Source: Blastocatellia bacterium
Lineage (GTDB): Bacteria > Acidobacteriota > Blastocatellia > HR10 > J050
NCBI GenBank assembly: GCA_025054955.1
Contig: JANWZE010000031.1
Location: forward strand, 38,567-102,566
Length of the DNA stretch: 64,000 nucleotides
Reading direction: 5' to 3'
Part shown: in pieces, positions 29,301 through 41,577 of the stretch
Position numbering within the stretch: position 1 is the stretch's first letter
Layout of the letters: every line of letters begins with the position of its first letter
Made by a program: the position numbers and the translations under genes
Notes under the pieces: model-generated
What the model was told of the DNA's origin: nothing
The model's database searches: none
Seen by the model: the letters and a program-made list of their open reading frames with translations, nothing else

Positions 29301-29547
29301 CAACTGTCAACTCGTAGGTCCCCACGGGTAGGCCGGGAAACCGATAACGACCGTCACTATCTGTGGTTGCCGAACGCGACGTATTGGTTTGCATGTTGCG
29401 CACCGTCACGTTGGCACCCGTGATGACGGCCTTTTGCTCATCCATTACCGTTCCAGAAATGGTTCCGGTCGTAGATTGAGCTAGCCCATGTGTGCTCACT
29501 GCTGTGAATATCAGCAGAAGCATTAGAATTTGTTTCGTAGGTCTCAT
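26356..29547 (-). CDS. TonB-dependent outer-membrane receptor with N-terminal carboxypeptidase-regulatory-like (CarbopepD_reg) domain
   Basis: Signal peptide, then a ~80-aa Ig-like TGTISGTV...GTYELTV domain, plug and barrel. C-terminal ...LGLRYIF ends in Phe. RBS GGAGGAAG before the ATG at 29547. Confidence 0.8.
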   Translation of the reverse strand: MRPTKQILMLLLIFTAVSTHGLAQSTTGTISGTVMDEQKAVITGANVTVRNMQTNTSRSATTDSDGRYRFPGLPVGTYELTVEQTGFARYVQSPITLALNQEAVVEVTLKPAGVQEVITVTGDAPLLNRTNAEVGVQFDTRRISELPLAPDRNVLTVALSVAGVSQLSAGNSQFTTGGVSFSVNGMRTRSNNFMIDGQDSNDPSITGLQQPLNNPDLIQEIRLITNQFLAEYGRAAGSVMNIITKQGTNELHGSAFWFHNSNKLNSRNNLDKVLVGGRPRFSDAPFRIENQFGGTVGGPIVKDKSFFFGSIQGWTDRQLGSGSTINGVPTEEGRRLLQQLAGNRPQVQALLRFLPAAQAPLNRSIPLTVGGQTVQIPVGTLSNATGFKLNNSQFSVRGDHHFNAKHRIGARYLWNDQESDGAGQANPPGLTTANQARQQAATAYFNSVFTPRLLNEFRVSYQRLGTITSASDPSSEQIPSIEIPQLGLTGFNAAASRTAIGLAVNLPQFRYNNTYQIQETISYTAGGHALKAGIDFRRIDVKSFFFPTIRGLLRYPTLQAFVDDVAEAANINKPLPGGEAIQYYKWYDYFAFFQDEWRVRPNFSLTYGLRYETPGESLLSLLPVNQRIIAAAGGDQRYALKPVPKRDTNNWQPRFGFNWNPRTSEDGILGFFTGGDKLVVRGGYARTNDYAFINIALNVASSFPFVAAINRSNLANAFVVLPTLTPTVANPDALTRTIVAADFRSPYADQYSLQIQRELTTDVVLSVGYVGTKGTALFQTIDGNPALPRTSASQPLVRVNPNEGVRRLRANASSSIYHSMQVSLEKRLSRGFSAGAHYTWSAYIDDASEIFNPSVNGEVAVSQDSFNRRADRGRSTYDRPHRFSANFVYELPFFREQQGLIGHILGGWQVNSFVTLQSGAPFTALNGADPTGALAGIDGLVGNAIRANLNTGLDLSSMSIEEIVRAGGQSLFRQVDPARGERLGNVGRNVLRADGITNWDLGIFKNTNITESQRIQFRVEMYNTTNTRNFGIPEARINSGNFLNQWGTDGGRRRVTLGLRYIF

Positions 29548-29677
29548 AGCTTCCTCCAAGTTTGATAAGAAAATGCCGAAGTACAAGCGATGTTGCCAGC
29601 AATCCGCATGCCACCGGCAGGGTAAACCTATAATCCTTGAAAGAGCAATGAGTTAATTTTTATCGCCGACTGACATT

Positions 29678-29715
29678 ATCCATTTTTTTGGAAATCTGTG
29701 ACCAAAAAAATGGAT
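29678..29715. promoter_or_regulatory. perfect 14-bp-stem inverted repeat (atccatttttttgg-N10-ccaaaaaaatggat) in the receptor's 5' region
   Basis: Seen directly. The A/T tracts in both arms would make it a bidirectional terminator-like or operator-like structure. Confidence 0.5.
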
Positions 29716-29789
29716 GCCTGCGCCCGATCAATAAGCAACCGTCTCCTTGATTTCAATCGGCTTCTGCGTACCGAGAATGTTCTATAGCG

Positions 29790-29867
29790 ACAATTGCCTT
29801 TACCCGGGGAGCACCCGCCTCATGTACGCTTGAGTGGGCGCTCCTAGGGTAGGGCAAACCGCTCTAG
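29790..29867. repeat. degenerate copy of the structured family-A repeat
   Basis: cccggggagcacccgcctcatgtacgcttgagtgggcgctcctagggtagggcaaaccgctctag, compare with the copies at 23745 and 43231. Confidence 0.5.
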
Positions 29868-30144
29868 TACAGGAGACACGTTCATGGAGGCAAAAGCATG
29901 GCGGGAGCCGAACTGAGTGAAGGGGAATGTCCGATCTTGGCTCGATATTGGTAGAATACCTCCCGCCGCACAGTTAGTGGAGTGTGCAGCGGATTTATCG
30001 TCTTATGGTCACCAGCCTGAAGTCATGCTCGGCACTGGAGCCACAACTCCAGAGGGCTGCTGCAGCCACCCATCTATCTTTCAGGGCTATTATGTAGTGG
30101 CACCCACAGGTGCGAGTGGCTGATTCAGTCATCAGGCGGTTTTG

Positions 30145-30525
30145 TTAGAAGCCGCCAAACAGTTCAAATGAAAACAGGTCAAAAAGCCACTGAAACACGC
30201 GCCACGATGACTGGTAAGACCAATAATGAGTGCCATAGGAGGAATATGAATTGGCCTGAACACCCGCGACGGAACCACGACCAAAACCGGAGCCACCCAT
30301 GATACTGCCACTCACGCTGACATGCCCGATCGTCCCACTGCTGGAGCTAGCACCGCCAACAACTCCACTACCGCCACCGGGTCGGCCGGTGTGACCCTCT
30401 CTGGAGGCTTGTGAACTTATGCGAATGTCTCCACCGGGTCGGCCTGTATGGCCCTCTCGTGCAAAAACTGGAACCGTAGCCAAGAATAAAATGAAGAGTG
30501 CGAAAAGCGTCAATGTTTTCTTCAT
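30145..30525 (-). CDS. small secreted Gly/Ser-rich repeat protein (hypothetical)
   Basis: RBS GGAGGAAAGC before MKKTLTLFALFILFLATVPVFA (signal peptide). Internal repeat REGHTGRPGG x2. Confidence 0.5.
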   Translation of the reverse strand: MKKTLTLFALFILFLATVPVFAREGHTGRPGGDIRISSQASREGHTGRPGGGSGVVGGASSSSGTIGHVSVSGSIMGGSGFGRGSVAGVQANSYSSYGTHYWSYQSSWRVFQWLFDLFSFELFGGF

Positions 30526-30626
30526 GCTTTCCTCCGTTCCGCTATCAAAAACACGGTTACTTAGTATGATTGCGCAGCCAAGACGTTGCTTGGTTGCAAT
30601 CATTGTCTGACGATATAAAATTGGAA

Positions 30627-32066
30627 TCAAACATTATATTTCCTTCTCAACATAGTGATATAAGCCTTGGTGACCCCAAGTAACTCAGCAGCGCGCACCT
30701 GACTTCCATTAGCGCGTTGCAACGCTTCCGTCAGTAAAAACTTACCCAGTGACTCATGGGCTTCTCGCCACGTCGGCAGAAAGCTGCTTTTGATAACAAA
30801 AACGCCGCCGGCTGTCTTGATTTTCTCTTCCTTGAGCAGGTTCTCGATTCGCTCGATCTGCGTCTTGATATAGGCATCTGTATAGCCGTTTAGCAAGTTC
30901 TTCGCTCGATGAAGATATTCATAAGCCACAACTCCCTCACCCTTGCGAGCGTAGACCTCAGCCAAATACGTGCAGCTTTCGCATTCGAGCATTTTACTTT
31001 TGAGCTGAATAGCAAGCCGCAAGGCCTCGTCGAGCTTTTCCTTGCTTTCGTCCAGCGCGCCTTGAGTAGCCAACACACGACCCAGTGTGATGAGCGCGAA
31101 CGCTTTCTCCTGGTCATTTTTGGCTAAGTCAGCCAGTTGAATAGCTGAGTAAAGGACCTGACGAGCTTCCTCCAAGCGCCCTTGCTCAAGATGTAATACG
31201 CCCATCAGCTCAAGCGTCATGGACTCGCCAGCAATATCAGTGGCCCGACGACGGAGTTCCAGGCTCTCTTGAAGCAGGTCTGCGGCTGCTTTGTACTTAC
31301 CAAGGCGAATATAGGTGTAGGCTAAGTTGTTTGTAGCATGGCCGAGGTCATCAAAGACCGCGCTTTCTGAAAAGTAATGAATCGCTTTTTGAAACAGCTC
31401 CGCCGCCTCATCATACCGTCCCTTTGCACGCAACAAGATGGCGTAACTATTCAACACACCTGCATAGTATCGCCCATCTTCGGTCTTTTTGAGCAGTTTT
31501 ATGGCTTTGTTGTAAAACGATTCGGCCTGACTTAACTCACCTAACTGGTGATGAATGACTCCCAGGTTGAACGAAATGATCCCGGTAATGAAGTCTGTGT
31601 CTATGTCTGTCTGTGACTCGATAACGTCTAGTGCTTCGTCCAGATGTTTTTTAGCAAGCTCATATTGACCCTGGCGACGGTAAATCCTGCCCAACACAGA
31701 GAGCGCACGAGCTTGACCAAACCTATCGCCCTTAATCCGGTAGATGCCCAGCACATTCTGTAATTGCTTCTCGGCCGCTTCATACTCACCCCGCCAGTAC
31801 AATAATTCTGTTTTGGCCAACCCAAATTCAGCCGTGTCTTTCAGGTTTGTCTCGTCGTCAATCTTGTCTTCAGACGATTGGAGCACCTCTTCCGCTTCTT
31901 CAAGCCGCCCTTGATAGATCAGAATGTGCGCCTTGATAGCCGAAGCTCGCAGTTCACTCGTATCAGGGATACGCTCGATGAGCTTCGCTGCTTGCTTGTA
32001 ATTCCCACGTAGTACTAAATCCTCAACTTGGGAGATGTCTGTGGTGTGCAAAATGGATTTTGTCAT
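30627..32066 (-). CDS. TPR-repeat regulator with C-terminal Fis-type helix-turn-helix
   Basis: About 8-10 TPR-like repeats. C-terminus ...EALQRANGSQVRAAELLGVTKAYITMLRRKYNV matches an HTH_8/Fis motif. GC content is lower than the surroundings. Confidence 0.7.
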   Translation of the reverse strand: MTKSILHTTDISQVEDLVLRGNYKQAAKLIERIPDTSELRASAIKAHILIYQGRLEEAEEVLQSSEDKIDDETNLKDTAEFGLAKTELLYWRGEYEAAEKQLQNVLGIYRIKGDRFGQARALSVLGRIYRRQGQYELAKKHLDEALDVIESQTDIDTDFITGIISFNLGVIHHQLGELSQAESFYNKAIKLLKKTEDGRYYAGVLNSYAILLRAKGRYDEAAELFQKAIHYFSESAVFDDLGHATNNLAYTYIRLGKYKAAADLLQESLELRRRATDIAGESMTLELMGVLHLEQGRLEEARQVLYSAIQLADLAKNDQEKAFALITLGRVLATQGALDESKEKLDEALRLAIQLKSKMLECESCTYLAEVYARKGEGVVAYEYLHRAKNLLNGYTDAYIKTQIERIENLLKEEKIKTAGGVFVIKSSFLPTWREAHESLGKFLLTEALQRANGSQVRAAELLGVTKAYITMLRRKYNV

Positions 32067-32243
32067 AATTGCCTTCCTTGTTTACGAGTATCAATTCTTA
32101 CCATAGTCAACATGAGTATACCAAAATGATGATTAATAGTCAATTCAAAAAATTATCTAGTTTCGATTACTGCAACTAATTCACTCAATAACAAAGAATT
32201 ATAAAATTTTCAATAAAAAAGTTCACAATAATAAATTTTCTTC

Positions 32244-32271
32244 TTGACAAATAGATTTATCATGCTATACT
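32244..32271 (+). promoter_or_regulatory. near-consensus sigma-70 promoter (TTGACA-16-TATACT) ahead of the peptide array, inside a <35% GC tract
   Basis: ttgaca at 32244-49 and tatact at 32266-71. The first peptide ATG is at 32313. Confidence 0.55.
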
Positions 32272-32312
32272 AATGACGTGTTTGACAATTATGAACTCAT
32301 AAGGAGTGAACG

Positions 32313-32426
32313 ATGAAAAACATTCGACAACAACTCGGACAGATTGATCCAATTACCTTGGCTTTGGCTCTCTTGCTGGCGCTTGGCACGTTCTTTAGCG
32401 GTGCTTGTCCCATTCCAACGCAGTAA
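32313..32426 (+). CDS. small peptide 1 of a tandem paralogous array (37 aa, MKNIRQQLGQIDPITLALALLLALGTFFSGACPIPTQ)
   Basis: Own RBS AAGGAG 6 nt upstream. Conserved core QLGQIDPITL(L/A)LALLLALGT-GACPI is shared with peptides 2-5. Confidence 0.6.
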   Translation: MKNIRQQLGQIDPITLALALLLALGTFFSGACPIPTQ

Positions 32427-32466
32427 GGAGTCTCTTTCTATCCAAAAATATAAAAGGAGAACGACA

Positions 32467-32568
32467 ATGAACAGAATCAAGCAGCAATTTGGTCAGATTG
32501 ACCCGATCACTTTACTGTTAGCTTTGCTCCTGGCCCTGGGCACAGGTGCTTGCCCTATTAGGTTTTAG
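32467..32568 (+). CDS. small peptide 2 (33 aa, MNRIKQQFGQIDPITLLLALLLALGTGACPIRF)
   Basis: RBS AAGGAGA. Paralog of peptide 1. Confidence 0.6.
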   Translation: MNRIKQQFGQIDPITLLLALLLALGTGACPIRF

Positions 32569-32610
32569 CAATTGAGATTTCTCTTAACTTCATATCAAGG
32601 AGTGATGATT

Positions 32611-32712
32611 ATGAATAAGATCAAACAGCAACTCGGACAGATTGACCCCATCACCCTATTGCTGGCTTTATTGTTGGCGCTGGGCACGGGTGCTTGCCCG
32701 ATTAGCTTTTAG
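32611..32712 (+). CDS. small peptide 3 (33 aa, MNKIKQQLGQIDPITLLLALLLALGTGACPISF)
   Basis: RBS AAGGAG 8 nt upstream. Paralog. Confidence 0.6.
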   Translation: MNKIKQQLGQIDPITLLLALLLALGTGACPISF

Positions 32713-32767
32713 TCGTAATTCAGGTTTTTCTTACTTTCAAAATATCAAATAAAAAAGGAGAAATGAC

Positions 32768-32875
32768 ATGAATAAGATCAAACAGCAACTCGGACAGATT
32801 GACCCCATCACCCTATTGCTGGCTTTGTTGTTGGCGCTGGGCACAGGCGCTTGCCCTATTGCGCTGGGTCGCTAA
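32768..32875 (+). CDS. small peptide 4 (35 aa, MNKIKQQLGQIDPITLLLALLLALGTGACPIALGR)
   Basis: RBS AAAAGGAGA. Paralog. Confidence 0.6.
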   Translation: MNKIKQQLGQIDPITLLLALLLALGTGACPIALGR

Positions 32876-32911
32876 TCACGACGCATCAGCCTGCAAATCA
32901 GGAGACGAAAC

Positions 32912-33013
32912 ATGAAAGCGATTACGCGACAGCTCGGACAAATAGATCCCGTTACCATTTTGATAGCCCTGTTGCTTGCACTAAGCGCGGGAACTTGTTC
33001 AATCGTACCCTGA
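32912..33013 (+). CDS. small peptide 5 (33 aa, MKAITRQLGQIDPVTILIALLLALSAGTCSIVP), most divergent copy
   Basis: RBS CAGGAGA. Paralog. Confidence 0.55.
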   Translation: MKAITRQLGQIDPVTILIALLLALSAGTCSIVP

Positions 33014-33036
33014 CCAGCTTTCAGGTCAACATCGGG

Positions 33037-33077
33037 ACCAAGCTGAGCATTTACCAAACCATCACGCTCAGCTTGGT
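33037..33077 (+). terminator. perfect 12-bp-stem hairpin (accaagctgagc-N17-gctcagcttggt) between the peptide array and the ECF sigma gene
   Basis: Seen directly. Followed by a weak T-rich stretch 'tcctgttat', so it may be a terminator or attenuator that allows read-through. Confidence 0.5.
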
Positions 33078-33108
33078 TCCTGTTATGGAGAGTTATGGAG
33101 GATCAGCT

Positions 33109-33708
33109 ATGGCTGCACAAATGGTTGCAAGATTGACGGATTTTCAGTTAGCTCGAGCTTCAGCCGCTGGGGATCATCGGGCTTTTGAAATGCTTTACTG
33201 CCAGCATCACCGACGGGTTTACAGTCTGTGCTTGAGGATGCTGAGGAACCACGAAGAGGCGGAGGATGTGACCCAAGAGGTTTTTCTCCAGGTCTATCGT
33301 AAGATCAATAGTTTTCAGGGCAATTCGGCTTTCACCACCTGGCTTCACCGATTGACAGTTAACATGGTGCTCATGTATTTACGGCGCAAACAGAAGGGGC
33401 ATAGGCAGGAAGAGACGTTGGAAGCAAACCAAATGGCCGATCCACTGGAGAATCGCAAACAGGTTGGGCATCCTGATTTTCCCATTGAGGCAGTTGATTT
33501 GCAGAACGCGATCAATGATCTACCAAATGGCTACCGCCAGGTCTTTATCCTGCATGATATCGAAGGATATGAGCACAATGAGATTAGTCAATTACTGGGC
33601 ATTAGCGTCGGAACGGCGAAATCTCAACTGCACAAAGCTCGGTTGAAACTGCGACAAGCGCTGCGAGCTACCCACCCGCAACAACTCGTGACGGCGACCG
33701 TTCAATAA
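33109..33708 (+). CDS. ECF-type (sigma-70 family) RNA polymerase sigma factor
   Basis: Region 2 (...DVTQEVFLQVYRKINSFQGNSAFTTWLHRLTVNMVLMYLRRK) and region 4 HTH (...NEISQLLGISVGTAKSQLHKARLKLR). Start set at MAAQMVARL with RBS GGAGGA, with 33085 as an alternative. No anti-sigma gene follows. Confidence 0.8.
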   Translation: MAAQMVARLTDFQLARASAAGDHRAFEMLYCQHHRRVYSLCLRMLRNHEEAEDVTQEVFLQVYRKINSFQGNSAFTTWLHRLTVNMVLMYLRRKQKGHRQEETLEANQMADPLENRKQVGHPDFPIEAVDLQNAINDLPNGYRQVFILHDIEGYEHNEISQLLGISVGTAKSQLHKARLKLRQALRATHPQQLVTATVQ

Positions 33709-33710
33709 CT

Positions 33711-35066
33711 TTATTCAGTGTCAGTTTCAATCGGTTCTTTCTGAGGGCTACTGCGCAAGCCATATTTTTCCAACCGGTACTGTAGCGTGCGAAACGAAAT
33801 GCCCAGCAGTTTAGCGGCCTGCGTGATGTTTCCATCCGTGCGCTGCATAGCTTGGACGATCAGCGAGCGTTCGACTTCGTCCAGGACCACGCCGTCGGGC
33901 GGCAACTTAAAGATCGCGGCGCTTCGCTCTTGTTGATGTTGGCGTAATTCCGGGGGCAAATCGTCCTGACCGATCTGGTCGCTTTCACACAGTAAGATGG
34001 CGCGCTCAATCACTGATTCAAGTTGACGCACATTGCCCGGCCAACCATAGTTCATGAGCGCCTCCATCGCCGAGCGTGTCAGGCCGCTGATCCGTCGGTG
34101 AGCGGCTCGGGCATGCTTAGCCAGAAACAGATTGACCAACACCGGGATGTCCTCACGACGTTCCCGCAACGGCGGCACGTCAATCGAAAGCACATTGATG
34201 CGATAGAATAAGTCCTCGCGAAACCGACCATCTTGCACCATTGCGTCTAAATCCCGATTGGTGGCCGTCAGGACGCGAACGTCAACTTTGACCGGTCGCG
34301 TGCCGCCGACGCGCATGATTTCTTTCTCTTGCAGCGCTCGCAGTAGCTTGGCTTGCATGCTTGTGTTGAGCTCAGCAATTTCGTCTAAGAACAGTGTCCC
34401 TTGATCGGCGACCTCAAACAGGCCTTTTTTCTGCGCGTGGGCGCCGGTGAAGCTGCCTTTTTCGTGGCCGAACAATTCGGACTCCATCAGGTTCTCATTG
34501 ATAGCCGCGCAGTTGACTGCCTGAAAAATCTGGTTTGACCGTTGACTAGCTTTGTGGATCGCGCGTGCGATGCGCTCTTTACCGACGCCAGACTCGCCGC
34601 GAATGAGCACCGTTGAAGATGAATTGGCCACTTTTAAGATCATTTTTTTGACGCGCTCCATGGCTGCTGAGGCGCTGACGATCTCTTCGTCAATCGCGTC
34701 CAATTGCTTAAGCGCCTCTTGGATCGTTTTCAGCAGTGTGTCACGCTCCAGTGGTTTTTCCAGGTAGTCATAGGCGCCTAGCTTAATAGCTTCCTTAGCC
34801 GAATCAATCGAGCCATGGGCTGTCATCATGATGACGCAGGTGGATGAGTCCTGCGTCAGAAGCTCCTTCAGAAGCTGCAAGCCATCCATGCCTGGCATTT
34901 TCAGATCGGTGAGCACTAAATCGAAATGCTCATGTGCGACAAGCTGCATAGCCTGATGGCCGCTTGCGGCTGTGCTGACCTGATGTCCCTCTTCAGCGAG
35001 GATCAGTTGCAGAATATCGCGTTGAAGCTTTTCATCATCTACAACCAAAATCTTTCTGCTACGCAT
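33711..35066 (-). CDS. sigma-54-dependent response regulator (NtrC family: REC + AAA+ + Fis HTH)
   Basis: Receiver DLVLTDLKMPGMDG, Walker A GESGVGKE, GAFTGA motif (GSFTGA) and C-terminal HTH. Confidence 0.9.
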   Translation of the reverse strand: MRSRKILVVDDEKLQRDILQLILAEEGHQVSTAASGHQAMQLVAHEHFDLVLTDLKMPGMDGLQLLKELLTQDSSTCVIMMTAHGSIDSAKEAIKLGAYDYLEKPLERDTLLKTIQEALKQLDAIDEEIVSASAAMERVKKMILKVANSSSTVLIRGESGVGKERIARAIHKASQRSNQIFQAVNCAAINENLMESELFGHEKGSFTGAHAQKKGLFEVADQGTLFLDEIAELNTSMQAKLLRALQEKEIMRVGGTRPVKVDVRVLTATNRDLDAMVQDGRFREDLFYRINVLSIDVPPLRERREDIPVLVNLFLAKHARAAHRRISGLTRSAMEALMNYGWPGNVRQLESVIERAILLCESDQIGQDDLPPELRQHQQERSAAIFKLPPDGVVLDEVERSLIVQAMQRTDGNITQAAKLLGISFRTLQYRLEKYGLRSSPQKEPIETDTE

Positions 35067-35086
35067 GAGGCCGTCTCCTTAGTAGT

Positions 35087-36589
35087 TCATCCGTGCTGTT
35101 GGTTGGCATTTGTGTCAGAGGCCGGCGTTGGGGTATGCAAGCGTGGTAGCGTGATCGTAAACGACGAGCCTTGATCAAGCTGGCTGTGAACGCTAATAGT
35201 CCCGCCGTGGTCTTGCACCAATTTTTTAGTCACAGCCAGCCCCAGGCCAATGCCGGTCTCCTTCGTTGAGTAGTACGGCTCAAAGATTTTGTCCAGTTGC
35301 TCAGGGGCAATGCCAACGCCTGTATCGCTCACCGTGATTTGCACATCCTGATCAGAGGAAGCCAGGGTGATCCTCAATTGACCGCCTGTCGGCATAGCTT
35401 GAATGGCGTTCATCACCAAATTGGAGAGACAAATCTTCAGTAACTGCTCATCTGCCTGAATCTCTGGCACATCACCGTTGCATTCAACGAGCAAATGAAT
35501 TTTCTGTTCTTTTGCTTGCAGTTGCAATGGGGAAACGACATCGTTGAGCAATTGGGACAGGTTAACCGATTGAGGTGACAGTTTTGTTGGTTTGCCATAA
35601 TTGAGGAAGTCAGTCACAAGTTGGTTTAATCGCGCTATCTGGCTTTTAATTGAATCCAGTAAATTGTCGAACATGGATTGATCGGCCTCGGCGCTTGGGC
35701 GGAAACGGCTGCGTACATGGTCAATGCTGAGGTTGATGAAGTTCAGCGGATTGCGGATTTCGTGAGCGATGCCGGACGCCAAGCGTCCGATGGCGGCTGC
35801 TTGTTCAACCTCGCGCAGACGTTCTTCAAGCTGCCGATTGCGCTTTAAGCCATGAACCATTTCATTGAACGTGGCTGCCAGGCTACCGATCTCGTCGCGA
35901 TGTCTGACTTGGAGTTGCACATCAAGGTCGCCTTGGGCCACGCGGCGTTCAGCTTTGAGCAAATCGTCAATCGGACGAGTGAATCGCCTCACTAACCAGA
36001 TTAACAGGCAGGCGGTCACGCTCATCATGCCGATCATCGCCCACAGCCGGTTACGCGAGTTTTGTGTCAACACGTTGGAAATCCCTTCCCACGACAGCAG
36101 CACATGGATTCGCTCTTGTTGGGTAGCATTACCATTGCCTGTAGTGATGGGGAAATTGTAATAACGGACTTCGCCGGGCGCTGTCTGTTGGGCTTGCTGG
36201 AAGAGTTCGTTGTAGCTGATCTGGTGCTCTGGATCGGGTAACGGACCGGCGCTGACCAGCTCTTTGCCGAAGACGGCCGGGTTGGTACTGTCCTTGATCA
36301 CGCGACGATGGTCGGTGATGAAGATAAGCAAGACGATTGGCCGAAATCGCGGTTGCATGGGATGTTGCTCAATGTATTCGGAGAGCCACAGTGGTGTGGG
36401 AATGGAGGCTAATGAAACCTGCACAGCCTCAGCTAACGCGCCGACGTGCTCGTCCACTTTATCGTGAATTTCTGCCTCAGCTTTCACGTTGAGCTGATAC
36501 AGCAAAAAGGTTGTTAATCCGACCATCGTCACCAGCAACAGCGTGACTTGCAGCATGAAGCTCATGTAGCGACCATCTTTCCTTTGCAT
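35087..36589 (-). CDS. sensor histidine kinase (membrane anchor, periplasmic-like domain, HAMP, HisKA, HATPase)
   Basis: H-box AAIGRLASGIAHEIRNPL and G-boxes DTGVGI / GLGLAV. Cognate partner of the adjacent response regulator. Confidence 0.85.
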   Translation of the reverse strand: MQRKDGRYMSFMLQVTLLLVTMVGLTTFLLYQLNVKAEAEIHDKVDEHVGALAEAVQVSLASIPTPLWLSEYIEQHPMQPRFRPIVLLIFITDHRRVIKDSTNPAVFGKELVSAGPLPDPEHQISYNELFQQAQQTAPGEVRYYNFPITTGNGNATQQERIHVLLSWEGISNVLTQNSRNRLWAMIGMMSVTACLLIWLVRRFTRPIDDLLKAERRVAQGDLDVQLQVRHRDEIGSLAATFNEMVHGLKRNRQLEERLREVEQAAAIGRLASGIAHEIRNPLNFINLSIDHVRSRFRPSAEADQSMFDNLLDSIKSQIARLNQLVTDFLNYGKPTKLSPQSVNLSQLLNDVVSPLQLQAKEQKIHLLVECNGDVPEIQADEQLLKICLSNLVMNAIQAMPTGGQLRITLASSDQDVQITVSDTGVGIAPEQLDKIFEPYYSTKETGIGLGLAVTKKLVQDHGGTISVHSQLDQGSSFTITLPRLHTPTPASDTNANQQHG

Positions 36590-38032: not shown

Positions 38033-39136
38033 TCATAGGTTGTTGCTAGCGCTGGCGGGCAGCGCGGCATGTCCTTGATAACAGCACGGACCCGGAGGAA
38101 TCCGTTTGCCATGCGGACAGTGCGTCGGGTGACCAAGGAAGGCGCATATACTATTGGTCATTTCCGGGCTTAAAATGTGCTCGAACACACAGGCTTCAGC
38201 TTCAGCCTGTTGATCCGGCATGCTGAGCGTGTTTGAGAAAAGCGTCTCAGCGAGCCGATGTCGTCGAATCAAGCTCCGAGCGCGTGCCTCGCCTTCCGAG
38301 GTGAGAAAGATGTCGTTGCCGTTGAGCGTGAACAACCGATTCATCCGCTCCGCATTGATATAGGCCTCACCGAACCGTCCGAGTGTTTTGATCACTGCAT
38401 CGCGTGTCAACTGACCGTCTTCTCTGAGCACCCAGAGTTGCTCCATGATTTCGTCAATGTTCTCCTCGACTTTTTCCGGCGTCAGATCAAAACCGATGAC
38501 GCGGCCATGATCCAGTTGAATCTGCCGATCCGCTTTCTGACCGATGCGGACATCGTGTGTGACCAGCACAATGGTATGGCCTTCGTGATGCAGTTCGCTC
38601 AACAGGTCCATGACAAGGCGTTCGTTCTCTTCATCAAGATTGCCCGTTGGCTCATCGGCCAGCAGCAAAGGCGGCTCATTGATCAGCGCCCGAGCGATGC
38701 ATACGCGCTGTTGTTCACCTCCGGAGAGCTCGCAAGGCCGATGGGTCAAGCGGTGGCCTAGGCCAACTCGCGCGAGCGCTTCGGCAGCTTCTTTCTCATC
38801 AACCATACTGTGGTAGTACTGAGCCAGCATGACGTTTTCCAGGGCTGTCAGATAAGGGATCAAGTGGAATTGTTGAAAAATCAGGCCGACATGTTCACGA
38901 CGGAATTCAGTCAATTGCGCGCCGGACAATTGCGTCACATCGTGGCCGGCAATCACCAGTCGTCCTTCGTCTGGTGTATCCAGGCAACCGAGCAAATTCA
39001 ACAGTGTCGTTTTACCTGAACCCGATGGCCCCATCACGGATACCCACTCGCCTTGCTCGATACGCATATCCACGTGATCAAGCGCGCGAACCGGGCCGTA
39101 GTCTTTGGTTAATTTTTCCGCCGTGATGAATGACAT
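38033..39136 (-). CDS. ABC transporter ATP-binding protein (LolD/MacB-type) fused to a C-terminal DtxR-like metalloregulator domain
   Basis: Walker [10 protein letters not shown], signature LSGGEQQR, Walker B LLLADEP. Residues ~225-367 align to the DtxR HTH plus metal-binding/dimerisation region (…[13 protein letters not shown]…[25 protein letters not shown]…) and end in a Cys-rich tail [13 protein letters not shown]. Confidence 0.75.
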
Positions 39137-39140
39137 AATT

Positions 39141-40283
39141 TCACTCTCCTTTCAACGCCGAGGCCGGCTCGATCGTGAGCGCCCGCTTGAGCGGCGCGTA
39201 TGCTGCCAGCCAACACACAATCAGAGCAAGCGCCAGTGTCAATGGAATCGTCTCTGGCCGAGGTGAGACGCCGGTCTGGAATAGACGCAGGCCAATGAGC
39301 CGTGACCCGATCACGCCGATAGCAAAGCCCGCCAACCCGCCAACCAACGCCAACACCGACGCCTCACTCAACAACAGTCCCAAAATCTGACGCGGTTGCG
39401 CGCCCAACGCTTTCATCAAACCAATTTCACGATGACGTTCCATCACAAGCGCCATCATCGTCGTCATCACGCACAACGCTGAAGTGATCAGGATGATAGC
39501 CGTCAGCACGAACATCACCCATTTGACTTTGCTCAGCACCTGAGCTTCGGATTGCGCGACTTGTCTGAGCGGACGCGCTTCAACGCCTGTAATCCGTTGT
39601 TCAATTTCTCGCGCTGTGGCTTGAACCTGTTGAAGGCCACCCATGACACTCAATGCCAAGAGTGAAATCTGAGCCTTCAGGCCGGTTGCGTGTTGGAGCG
39701 TCGAGAGGCTCATGAATACTTGCTCATCTTCGGATTCACCGGTCGTAACAATGCCCGTGATTCGTAGCAGGCCTTTCCAGCTCCCATCGCCGATGGCCAA
39801 CTGAATGCGATCGCCGACTTGCAATCCCAATCGCTGGGCCAGTTGCGAGCCAATCATGCCTGCATCAGTATTGTCATCGCGAGCCCATTCTCCTTGAACG
39901 TGCCAATATGGGCTGACTTGGCGAACGCTGTTGAATCGGACCCCAGCAACGATGACTGCCTCGTTGCTGGGGTCGGCCTGAATTGTCCCCGTTGCGTAAA
40001 GATAGGGCGCTGAACCAATCACCTTATCAGTGCCGCTGAGGCGTTCCACTTCCACCCACGACTCGCTCAAATGGCTTTCAGGGAACCGGGGGATCACAAC
40101 CAGGTTCGCTCCGTAGGTTCTGAGCTCTCGGTTCATTTTGCGCTCCACATCGAACGTCAAATTGAGCAGCGTCGCTGCCGCCGCCGTTCCCACCATGACA
40201 GCCAGTAAAGCCAGCGCCACTTTGACGCCCCGTCGCACCAGCGATTGTTTGAGCATCTGCCAAAAAAGTTGCTGCTGATTCAT
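39141..40283 (-). CDS. FtsX/MacB-family ABC transporter permease
   Basis: N-terminal TM, large periplasmic domain, C-terminal 3-TM FtsX domain (...GLMKALGAQPRQILGLLLSEA...). Start set at MNQQQLFWQ, 16 nt after the upstream gene's stop. Confidence 0.75.
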   Translation of the reverse strand: MNQQQLFWQMLKQSLVRRGVKVALALLAVMVGTAAAATLLNLTFDVERKMNRELRTYGANLVVIPRFPESHLSESWVEVERLSGTDKVIGSAPYLYATGTIQADPSNEAVIVAGVRFNSVRQVSPYWHVQGEWARDDNTDAGMIGSQLAQRLGLQVGDRIQLAIGDGSWKGLLRITGIVTTGESEDEQVFMSLSTLQHATGLKAQISLLALSVMGGLQQVQATAREIEQRITGVEARPLRQVAQSEAQVLSKVKWVMFVLTAIILITSALCVMTTMMALVMERHREIGLMKALGAQPRQILGLLLSEASVLALVGGLAGFAIGVIGSRLIGLRLFQTGVSPRPETIPLTLALALIVCWLAAYAPLKRALTIEPASALKGE

Positions 40284-40299
40284 ACGCCTTCGTGTATCG

Positions 40300-41577
40300 T
40301 CATGTATTGCGCAAAATTTCAACCGGACGGAAACCAAGCAATTGTCTTGCCGGCACAGCGCACCCAATCAGCGCAATGGCTACTGCCACGCCCAATGCCA
40401 GTGGTAATATGATCGGCTTAAGAGCGACGCTTGAACCGAAAACCACGCTGCCAACCAGCTTGGCTAGTATGATCCCTAAGCCGCAGCCCATGAACCCGCC
40501 GATCAATCCCATCAACGACGCCTCTGTAAGAAACAGAACAACCACCTGTGCGTTGGTCGAGCCAATGGCTTTCATCAATCCAATCTCGGTTCGTCGCTCC
40601 AGCACCGTTGTCATCATAGTGCTCATCACAGCCAGCGCCGATGCCACCAATGCCAGTGCAGCAACCAGTATCATCATGAGTTTCATTTTCTGCAGAATTC
40701 GAGCTTCGGATTCAACAACCCGCTGAATCGGTTTGACGTCAGCCATCGGGAACACCTCACGCAGATTGTGGGCAATCGAACTGACGAATGGCGTACACAT
40801 CCACCGCTCGAATTCTTCTGGCGGCAACCGGTGCGGGTCAGTCCCGAGGCGTTCATAGACTTTGCTTTCCGGTGTCGTGAGCGCGCTGACCAATACGCGC
40901 TCGATTTGTCCTTCACGCCGGGTGAGCTTCTGTACAGCAGCAAGCGTGGTGAAAATTTGATCGTCTTCCGCTCCGCCGGTTGTCAGGACACCGGTGACAT
41001 AAAACGAATCCTGCTGGTTGCCAACTTTGATCTCAAGCGTCTGGCCAGGCTGAATCTGTAATGCCTTGGCTACCGCTTGGCCAACCAGGGCCTGTTGAGG
41101 CGCGTTGGTTTCATCAACCCACTGACCCTCCACATGCCAAAGCGGATTGAGCGTCTTCATGCCGGTTTCCATGGCCCCGCCCTCGAAGCGAACCGGCTGA
41201 TGAAACCAAGTTCCGACCAATTTGACCGCCCGACCACGCACCGAGGCCCACTCGTCCAATATCGGAGCGAATGCCAAAATGTTGTGTCGCCAGAAGACCT
41301 CTTTGATTCTCGGCAGATGGCTTTCAGGCAATGCGCCTTCGGGTTTAAGCCGGCTCAAATCCTCGCCACCAATCTCTAACGGCAGAGCCGTCCCTTTGGG
41401 CACAATCAGCAAGTTGGCTCCAAACGCTTTCAGCTCACGATTGACCTTATCCTCCACATCCAGTGTGATGTTGAGTAGAACGACGATCACACTTGTGCCC
41501 AGCATCAGCGCCAACGTCGCAATCAATTTGCTACGTCGCTGTCGGCGGAACGATTGTGCGACCACACGAAAAAACAT
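40300..41577 (-). CDS. FtsX/MacB-family ABC transporter permease
   Basis: Same architecture (...GLMKAIGSTNAQVVVLFLTEA...). Paralog of the downstream permease. Confidence 0.75.
   Translation of the reverse strand: MFFRVVAQSFRRQRRSKLIATLALMLGTSVIVVLLNITLDVEDKVNRELKAFGANLLIVPKGTALPLEIGGEDLSRLKPEGALPESHLPRIKEVFWRHNILAFAPILDEWASVRGRAVKLVGTWFHQPVRFEGGAMETGMKTLNPLWHVEGQWVDETNAPQQALVGQAVAKALQIQPGQTLEIKVGNQQDSFYVTGVLTTGGAEDDQIFTTLAAVQKLTRREGQIERVLVSALTTPESKVYERLGTDPHRLPPEEFERWMCTPFVSSIAHNLREVFPMADVKPIQRVVESEARILQKMKLMMILVAALALVASALAVMSTMMTTVLERRTEIGLMKAIGSTNAQVVVLFLTEASLMGLIGGFMGCGLGIILAKLVGSVVFGSSVALKPIILPLALGVAVAIALIGCAVPARQLLGFRPVEILRNT

Follow-up and report, generated by a model that had tools for sequence, protein, structure and literature searches.

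The RRNPP receptors, including those of the Rap-Phr, NprR-NprX, PlcR-PapR, AimR-AimP, Rgg-SHP, PrgX and ComR-ComS systems, are cytoplasmic proteins of 250-500 aa that have a tetratricopeptide repeat (TPR) superhelix in common. The use of cytoplasmic TPR receptors in peptide signaling is considered to be specific to the Firmicutes (Bacillota) and their phages. RRNPP systems have been described as restricted to Bacillota (PMC10075063), and in our literature search no paper connected Acidobacteria with RRNPP systems or Blastocatellia with quorum sensing by peptides. Here we describe a locus in a 64,000-nucleotide stretch of DNA from a Blastocatellia bacterium (GenBank assembly GCA_025054955.1, contig JANWZE010000031.1, positions 38,567 to 102,566; hereafter the window), in which a gene at 30627-32066 encodes a TPR protein with a C-terminal helix-turn-helix (HTH) domain, here termed the regulator. 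Its gene is followed by one for a small exported mini-protein and is transcribed divergently from an operon of five mini-peptide genes and an extracytoplasmic function (ECF) sigma factor gene. We tentatively propose that this protein is a one-component regulator of the peptide-sigma operon, gated by a peptide in the manner of the RRNPP receptors.

The regulator has the sensor fold characteristic of RRNPP receptors, i.e. a TPR superhelix of the Rap/NprR/PlcR/AimR type, which it shares at a comparable size, and its gene neighborhood recalls several of these systems. As for Rap-Phr, NprR-NprX and AimR-AimP, a gene for a small exported protein lies directly downstream; as for Rgg-SHP and PrgX-PrgQ, genes for short hydrophobic peptides lie divergently upstream; and, as in the action of ComRS on sigmaX, an alternative sigma factor is linked, here one of the ECF type. 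The candidates for an RRNPP-type pro-peptide are the 126-aa exported, disordered mini-protein (111-126 aa across its family, with a hydrophobic tail) and the 33-37-aa hydrophobic peptides. In contrast with the RRNPP receptors, which have an N-terminal XRE-type HTH (absent in the Rap phosphatases) and Bacillota hosts, the regulator has a C-terminal Fis-type HTH_8 domain and belongs to a diderm acidobacterial host. Its C-terminal ~45 residues match HTH_8 of the NtrC/Fis family, and their final stretch (...AAELLGVTKAYITMLRKKYG) resembles an NtrC-type DNA-binding domain; NtrC-type enhancer-binding proteins, however, combine HTH_8 with an AAA+ sigma54-interaction domain (GAFTGA), whereas the regulator has neither this nor a receiver domain. 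Since the sigma54-interaction domain is absent, the regulator cannot be an enhancer-binding ATPase, and the nearby promoters are both of the sigma70 type. The MalT/LAL/SARP-AfsR regulators couple a STAND/NB-ARC NTPase and TPRs to a LuxR- or OmpR-type HTH; the regulator, which is half their size or less, has no NTPase and a Fis-type HTH. These defining features place it outside the RRNPP, NtrC and MalT groups; functionally, it may be RRNPP-like.

Four lineage-specific families, i.e. the regulator, the mini-protein (termed GG(R/K)P after its repeat), the single-Cys mini-peptides and the ECF sigma factor, occur together within a clade of Blastocatellia. In the mechanism that we propose, the Rap/NprR-like TPR superhelix would act as the sensor and the C-terminal Fis/NtrC-type three-helix domain as the DNA-binding output, such that a short peptide segment bound in the TPR groove would alter DNA binding by the HTH. 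The regulator would set transcription from the sigma70 promoters of the divergent peptide-sigma operon, which would be the main regulated output, and of its own operon, and the ECF sigma factor would then relay the signal to a wider regulon, cf. ComR/ComS acting on sigmaX. Ligand binding, ligand identity, the DNA target and the direction of regulation are all features that we infer from the genes and models described below.

Domain structure and fold of the regulator

The original prediction described the regulator as a 479-aa TPR protein ending in a Fis/NtrC-type HTH and having neither a receiver nor an AAA+ domain, and Pfam scans and an AlphaFold2 (AF2) model bear this out. The TPR superhelix (aa 1-415) comprises ~10 TPR hairpins and matches several Pfam TPR families (TPR_12, 2.8e-40; TPR_MalT, 97 bits with a cut-off of 45). 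It is followed by the Fis-type HTH at aa 433-477 (nt 30636-30770), within which HTH_8 matches residues 444-466 at 23.5 bits, marginally above the cut-off of 22. The regulator gave no Pfam match to Response_reg, Sigma54_activat or AAA, whereas in the same scan a true NtrC-type protein encoded nearby (33711-35066), which served as the positive comparison and likewise carries HTH_8, scored 241 bits on Sigma54_activat. The AF2 model, made from the orthologue alignment, has a predicted local distance difference test score (pLDDT) of 90.9 and a predicted TM-score (pTM) of 0.82, and comprises ~21 helices in a continuous superhelix, a short β hairpin and a three-helix bundle (433-477). Because a signal peptide and membrane segments are both absent, the regulator is assigned as cytoplasmic.

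Full-length orthologues form ~20 clusters at 37-95% identity, and the gene is therefore not a chance open reading frame. All of them come from metagenome-assembled genomes of Blastocatellia or other Acidobacteriota, many from hot springs. The C-terminal ~50-60 residues (G.F.IKSSFLPTWREAHESLGKFLLTEAL..AGG.Q..AAELLGVTKAYITMLRKKYG) are the best-conserved stretch of the family, and HTH_8 is found in 17 of 19 orthologues.

In a structural comparison the closest match was a Rap receptor with its peptide bound; Foldseek placed LGN/Pins at the top and NprR at rank 41 (TM 0.71). A profile search against PDB sequences gave consensus TPR proteins, kinesin light chain (KLC) and LGN as the best matches, with a weak match to RapF (1.7e-5 over 140 residues), and the NCBIfam scan gave no specific RRNPP homology (RGG_Cterm, E 0.91). 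As modeled, the fold is that of TPR domains that bind extended peptides, and it is compatible with a receptor of the RRNPP kind. A PADLOC scan returned generic TPR matches only, and identity with PrsT/PrsR of the PEP-CTERM system was rejected, the match of the regulator to TIGR02915 being confined to the HTH_8 segment (E 0.003).

The structural matches also bear on an alternative, i.e. that the TPR domain recognizes another protein instead of a small peptide, with the ECF sigma factor, RNA polymerase and a chaperone as candidates, and with the regulator acting as a scaffold or co-regulator, or with HTH_8 being a vestigial dimerization module, and with no cell-cell signaling in either case. LGN/Pins, KLC and APC subunits as the top sequence and Foldseek matches, the TPR_MalT match, and the occurrence of the wider ~470-aa TPR-HTH_8 family in varied contexts with no small-peptide neighbors are all as this alternative would have it. 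The HTH as the best-conserved region and the presence of HTH_8 in nearly all orthologues, however, argue for conserved DNA binding, and an invariant co-transcribed exported partner would be left unexplained; we consider it improbable that the regulator is such a scaffold.

The wider family came from a search with the C-terminal 75 residues of the regulator against 1.84 billion representative proteins, with clusters at 50% identity, which gave at least 10 further clusters whose members, of 463-482 aa, combine TPRs and HTH_8 in the same architecture (L036 5001-6737; P0105-P0134). These occur in varied contexts without peptide genes. The ~470-aa architecture of N-terminal TPRs and a C-terminal HTH_8 is, like both partner families of the regulator, unannotated and undescribed, and in kind its members are TPR-sensor one-component regulators. 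The gene of one relative, at 31% identity, is followed by that of a 73-aa exported protein, in which a signal peptide precedes GEFQGG, a stretch of poly-Pro and a hydrophobic tail; this suggests that the pairing of a regulator with an exported protein is older than that with the peptides. The distant relatives P0020, P0107, P0133 and P0123 have no informative small open reading frames as neighbors.

The co-transcribed mini-protein

The mini-protein gene lies directly 3' of the regulator gene in every orthologue locus with downstream DNA, whether or not peptide genes adjoin the regulator. In the window its product comprises, in order, a signal peptide, two copies of REGHTGRPGG, a disordered region rich in Gly and Ser, and a C-terminal helix that is hydrophobic and aromatic. 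Across the family, i.e. 16 clusters of proteins of 111-126 aa, every one annotated as hypothetical, the arrangement is a signal peptide, two copies of [RG][EVQ][GST]x[TAG]G[RK]P (a duplicated x4-GG[RK]P motif), a Gly-rich linker and an aromatic tail. G28, P30, G47 and P49 are invariant, R48 is nearly so and the remainder diverges fast. We found no significant match to Pfam or NCBIfam. The AF2 model has a pLDDT of 49.7, with the signal peptide and the C-terminal helix as the only predicted helices; as modeled, the exported mini-protein has the character of a disordered pro-protein or of a linker anchored by its tail.

We rank the GG(R/K)P mini-protein slightly above the divergent peptides as the candidate ligand source because it accompanies the regulator without exception, in what is apparently the older linkage, because it occupies the canonical receptor-then-propeptide position (cf. 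Rap-Phr, NprR-NprX and AimR-AimP), and because it is exported, disordered and fast evolving except in the duplicated motif, which abuts the signal-peptidase site. The motif is similar to the Phr and AimP families in that variable residues surround an invariant Arg/Gly core.

Linkage of the regulator, mini-protein, peptide and sigma genes

As originally predicted, the regulator is transcribed divergently from the peptide array, which consists of five tandem genes on the + strand (32313-33013). The back-to-back arrangement, which the prediction took as the classic one of a regulator and its signal genes, is present in some lineages and not in others. We examined 24 orthologue loci, with upstream DNA available in 22 records. 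A layout with the peptide and sigma genes running in one direction and the regulator and mini-protein genes in the other recurs in five diverged lineages (the clade of the window, L013/L014, L005/L011, L003 and L004), which bear 1-5 peptide copies. In 14 of the 22 records, which make up the largest clade (HR08, HR10 and relatives), a LacI-KduI-PfkB operon instead lies divergent to the regulator, which has neither a peptide nor a sigma gene beside it. Regulators without adjacent peptide genes, an occurrence that the original prediction had named as speaking against itself, are thus found in these records and also among the distant TPR-HTH_8 relatives.

The unlinked peptide-sigma operons occupy the same syntenic site as those of L003 and L004, beside genes for DHOase, YceD, L32, PlsX and FabH. 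In the unlinked clade (L025-L032; 5440-5800 in L025) groES-groEL replaces the regulator as the neighbor divergent from the peptide-sigma operon, which hints at a connection with heat or proteostasis in these thermophiles. Both unlinked pairs are present in the same genome in all three such genomes checked (HR08, HR10 and GCA_053493675.1); the co-occurrence of the families that had been proposed as a check is seen in these genomes, but not as adjacency in the 14 records above. The regulator, peptide and mini-protein families share a narrow range (~20, 34 and 16 clusters, respectively). The module is composed of two invariant pairs, i.e. the regulator with the mini-protein and the peptides with the sigma factor, which are often but not always adjacent.

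The divergent mini-peptides and the ECF sigma factor

Each of the five tandem peptide genes in the window is preceded by an AGGAG-type ribosome-binding site. Synonymous to non-synonymous codon differences between the paralogues are 14:2, 12:2 and 4:0, and the genes are therefore translated and under purifying selection. A profile search with the peptides retrieved 34 clusters of 32-39-aa proteins, including HRbin08_00668 and HRbin10_00658, and nothing else. The family pattern, with one to five copies per locus, is GQxD, 16-19 hydrophobic residues and G-x-C; ~10 residues precede the hydrophobic stretch, and the N-terminal 12-mer of the mini-peptide is MNKIKQQLGQID. Among 40 unique peptides G-Q-x-D, one Leu and one Cys are invariant, with exactly one Cys in each. 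The residue at -2 from the Cys is Gly in all but one (39/40), and an Asp-to-Cys spacing of 19 residues, seen in 30 peptides, is commoner than one of 16 (nine peptides) or 17 (one peptide). The tails that follow the Cys vary (CPISF, CPIRF, CPIALGR, CSIVP, CPIPGISQ, CPPVQ and CPIP). They are the least conserved part of the peptides, some lineages having tails of 3 residues and L023 none, which speaks against their selection in the original prediction as the part to dock.

Several assignments of the peptides were considered and set aside. A lipoprotein could not be called firmly, since the strict lipobox [LVI][ASTVI][GAS]C occurs in 0 of 40 peptides; a permissive PROSITE-like pattern fits 29 of 40, and five have Gln at -1. 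Given these five and the lack of strict lipoboxes, processing at the Cys is uncertain. By inspection, the G|Q-x-D sequence is unlike the G|FTLIE or G|xxxxEY of type IV or Flp-like pilins, and the mature part would be ~24 aa. A ribosomally synthesized and post-translationally modified peptide or a bacteriocin was rejected, since no modification enzyme, peptidase-containing ATP-binding cassette transporter (PCAT) or immunity gene is conserved beside the peptides in any context.

Two observations concern individual peptide genes. Terminator-like hairpins with T-rich runs lie within the 3' ends of peptide genes 2 and 3 (32538-32555 and 32681-32700, +) and are made by the codons for LGTGACP; they could be partial terminators inside the array or a by-product of conserved coding sequence. 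In L023 (3773-3865, -) a remnant of 26-30 aa, M(EKKM)DTSAINPGLLPLALAVLLLLSAGVC, lies divergent from a regulator of 49% identity. It ends at the conserved Cys, has neither GQxD nor a good match to a -35 element, and is probably a copy in decay; the interval up to the DHOase gene holds no sigma gene.

The mini-peptides might themselves be the signal, as in Rgg/SHP, PrgX/iCF10 and ComR/ComS, either after export and processing or via a membrane-embedded peptide whose GQxD tail tethers the regulator. The divergent layout in five lineages and the presence of peptides and regulator in the same genome even when unlinked fit such a role, as do the properties of the peptides, which are short, hydrophobic, headed by Lys/Arg, multi-copy, predicted to be strongly expressed and under purifying selection. 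An invariant GQxD on the cytoplasmic side would be odd in an ordinary signal peptide and implies that there is a specific partner, L023 retains its divergent remnant beside the regulator despite having no sigma gene, and the fold of the regulator resembles the RRNPP receptors. However, the invariant neighbor of the peptides is the ECF sigma gene rather than the regulator, and in the largest clade the two are unlinked; five different tails would have to act on one receptor in one genome, and elsewhere the tails are minimal or missing; and the doubt over processing at the Cys applies here also. We therefore regard the divergent peptides as unlikely to be the signal. The claim that the regulator is a receptor for the adjacent peptides is, then, retained in part: the RRNPP-like fold agrees with it, but the tightest partners differ, being the mini-protein for the regulator and the sigma factor for the peptides.

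For the ECF sigma factor NCBIfam gave only the generic sigma70-ECF model above the cut-off, and no anti-sigma gene is adjacent in the loci examined. The order of peptide gene(s) followed by sigma gene is kept in every locus for which DNA is available. The spacer that separates the sigma gene from the last peptide gene holds a GC-rich hairpin that recurs at the same position in other lineages, with compensatory changes and no U-tract (spacers at L003 5245-5344, L004 5336-5449, L025 6256-6379, L028 6259-6380 and L031 7100-7218). An invariant 12-mer, AGCTTCTTCATA, unique in each locus, lies 5' of the hairpin in L003, L004 and the HR08/HR10 clade, and a CCTCC stretch after the hairpin has the potential to pair with the GGAGG ribosome-binding site of the sigma gene. 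Judging from these sequences, the spacer hairpin may govern how the sigma mRNA is processed or translated, perhaps in a temperature-responsive manner.

These features bear on a different alternative, i.e. that the mini-peptides serve the ECF sigma factor, in envelope, redox or heat sensing via the Cys at the periplasmic face, with the TPR-HTH regulator being independent and its adjacency reflecting a shared regulon or ancestry. The known ECF anti-sigma domains of the zf-HC2/RskA type have ~60-90 cytoplasmic residues, and we know of no anti-sigma domain as small as ~10 residues; the cytoplasmic part of the peptides is thus well short of such a domain. Neither Pfam nor NCBIfam gave an anti-sigma match in the regulator, and the peptides have no match of any kind, including to anti-sigma domains, in NCBIfam. 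On the other hand, the peptide-then-sigma order with its conserved structured spacer, the lack of an adjacent anti-sigma gene, the single Cys in 40 of 40 peptides at a fixed distance of 19 or 16 residues from the invariant Asp, and the groES-groEL genes divergent from the operon in the unlinked clade are all consistent with a role for the peptides in sigma control. There is also a precedent in some ECF groups for small transmembrane negative regulators: in the ECF31 SigY-YxlCD system, small transmembrane proteins adjoin an ECF sigma factor that has no classical anti-sigma gene (PMC7826278). The locus resembles this system in having small transmembrane proteins beside an ECF sigma gene, and differs from it in that the peptides are of 32-39 aa, lie upstream of the sigma gene, are present in one to five copies and give no anti-sigma domain match. 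A role for the peptides confined to the sigma factor would leave unexplained the narrow shared range of the two pairs and their adjacency in five lineages, and an ECF-type promoter lies upstream of the operon in just one of nine regions. A peptide-sigma unit independent of the regulator is accordingly a real but rather doubtful possibility.

Promoters and assessment of the proposed mechanism

Two sigma70 promoters lie back-to-back in the 246-bp intergenic region between the regulator and peptide genes. The -35 and -10 elements of the peptide-operon promoter (cTTGACa-17-TGnTATACT) are kept in 8 of 8 aligned lineages, linked or unlinked, and near-consensus sigma70 promoters are also present 5' of regulator orthologues. 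That the promoters are near-consensus and conserved agrees better with a repressor or switch acting on them than with a need for an activator. An autoregulatory ECF-type promoter (GGAAC-N15-18-CGT/GTC) was rejected, being found in the single region mentioned above; the operon promoter is of the sigma70 type.

Several results weigh against our proposal that the regulator is a peptide-gated, RRNPP-like regulator of the peptide-sigma operon. With respect to the DNA target, no conserved inverted repeat or palindrome was found in eight divergent regions. A GTTT-N-AAAC / TTTG-N-RAAC element is present downstream of the -10 in the 5' untranslated regions of both peptide and regulator genes, but is not strictly conserved, and TTTG-N-RAAC, at 9 observed versus 5.5 expected in shuffles, is not statistically separable from chance, such that it is at most a putative operator. 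With respect to the receptor, sequence profiles give no specific RRNPP homology, the C-terminal position and Fis type of the HTH are unlike those of every RRNPP member, and distant members of the family lack both types of partner. With respect to the ligand, both the length of the mini-protein (111-126 aa) and its hydrophobic C-terminal helix are atypical of pro-peptides; the diderm host means that an extracellular peptide must cross two membranes, and no importer is linked to the module. Our proposal is, consequently, a tentative one.

Feature coordinates and neighboring genes

The features of the module are collected in Table 1.

Table 1. Features of the regulator and peptide-sigma operons in the window
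Feature	Position	Strand	Basis or remark
TPR-HTH_8 one-component regulator	30627..32066	-	ATG start, 479-aa open reading frame
Small exported mini-protein, 126 aa	30145..30525	-	Directly downstream of regulator, same strand
Regulator-operon sigma70-type promoter, TTGACT-17-TATACT	32115..32143	-	10/12 matches, extended -10 TG
Peptide-sigma operon near-consensus sigma70 promoter, TTGACA-16-TGcTATACT (-10 TATACT)	32244..32271	+	11/12 matches
Mini-peptide gene 1, 37 aa, MKNIRQQLGQIDPITLALALLLALGTFFSGACPIPTQ	32313..32426	+	Open reading frame and ribosome-binding site, family profile search
Mini-peptide gene 2, 33 aa, ...GACPIRF	32467..32568	+	
Mini-peptide gene 3, 33 aa, ...GACPISF	32611..32712	+	
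Mini-peptide gene 4, 35 aa, ...GACPIALGR	32768..32875	+	
Mini-peptide gene 5, 33 aa, ...GTCSIVP	32912..33013	+	
Conserved stem-loop, ~14-bp stem, no U-tract	33035..33080	+	Between peptide gene 5 and sigma gene
ECF sigma factor, 199 aa	33109..33708	+	Pfam Sigma70_r2, r4_2, ECF

Convergent with the sigma gene are genes for a sigma54-dependent NtrC-type response regulator and a HAMP histidine kinase (33711-36589, -). The NtrC-type gene is found at the same position in the clade of 78% identity (L013 6-338, on a contig too short to show the histidine kinase) and not in more distant lineages; because it recurs only in the closest clade, the pair is not counted in the conserved module. Rfam gave no match in 29500-34000. 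Across the module (30001-34000) the GC content drops to 0.50 and then 0.46, compared with ~0.55 elsewhere in the window.

A MacB/FtsX-type ATP-binding cassette exporter, composed of two permeases and an ATPase fused to a DtxR-type Fe_dep_repr_C domain, is encoded at 38033-41577 (-) of the window. A homologous permease and ATPase pair lies directly beside the sigma gene in L005/L011 (2650-4895), and none is near the module in other clades; the exporter could export the peptides, or its position could be coincidental.

Significance of the locus

Acidobacteria are a dominant and poorly understood phylum of soils and hot springs. We consider it unlikely, albeit worth stating, that the locus is the first system outside Bacillota with RRNPP logic, i.e. 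a cytoplasmic receptor and a gene-encoded peptide, put together independently, in thermophilic diderms of the Blastocatellia, by the joining of a TPR sensor to a Fis-type HTH; its signals would be a secreted pro-peptide with GG(R/K)P repeats, SHP-like mini-peptides or both, and its ECF relay would be the analogue of ComRS-sigmaX. Such convergence in Acidobacteria, if true, would mean that diderms also use gene-encoded peptides with intracellular receptors. Even if there is no cell-cell signaling, the compact module, with four gene types and two sigma70 promoters of predicted high strength within 3.6 kb, brings together three unannotated orphan families (the TPR-HTH_8 regulators, the GG(R/K)P mini-proteins and the GQxD...C mini-peptides), and may represent a new mode of control for an ECF sigma factor that has no anti-sigma gene.

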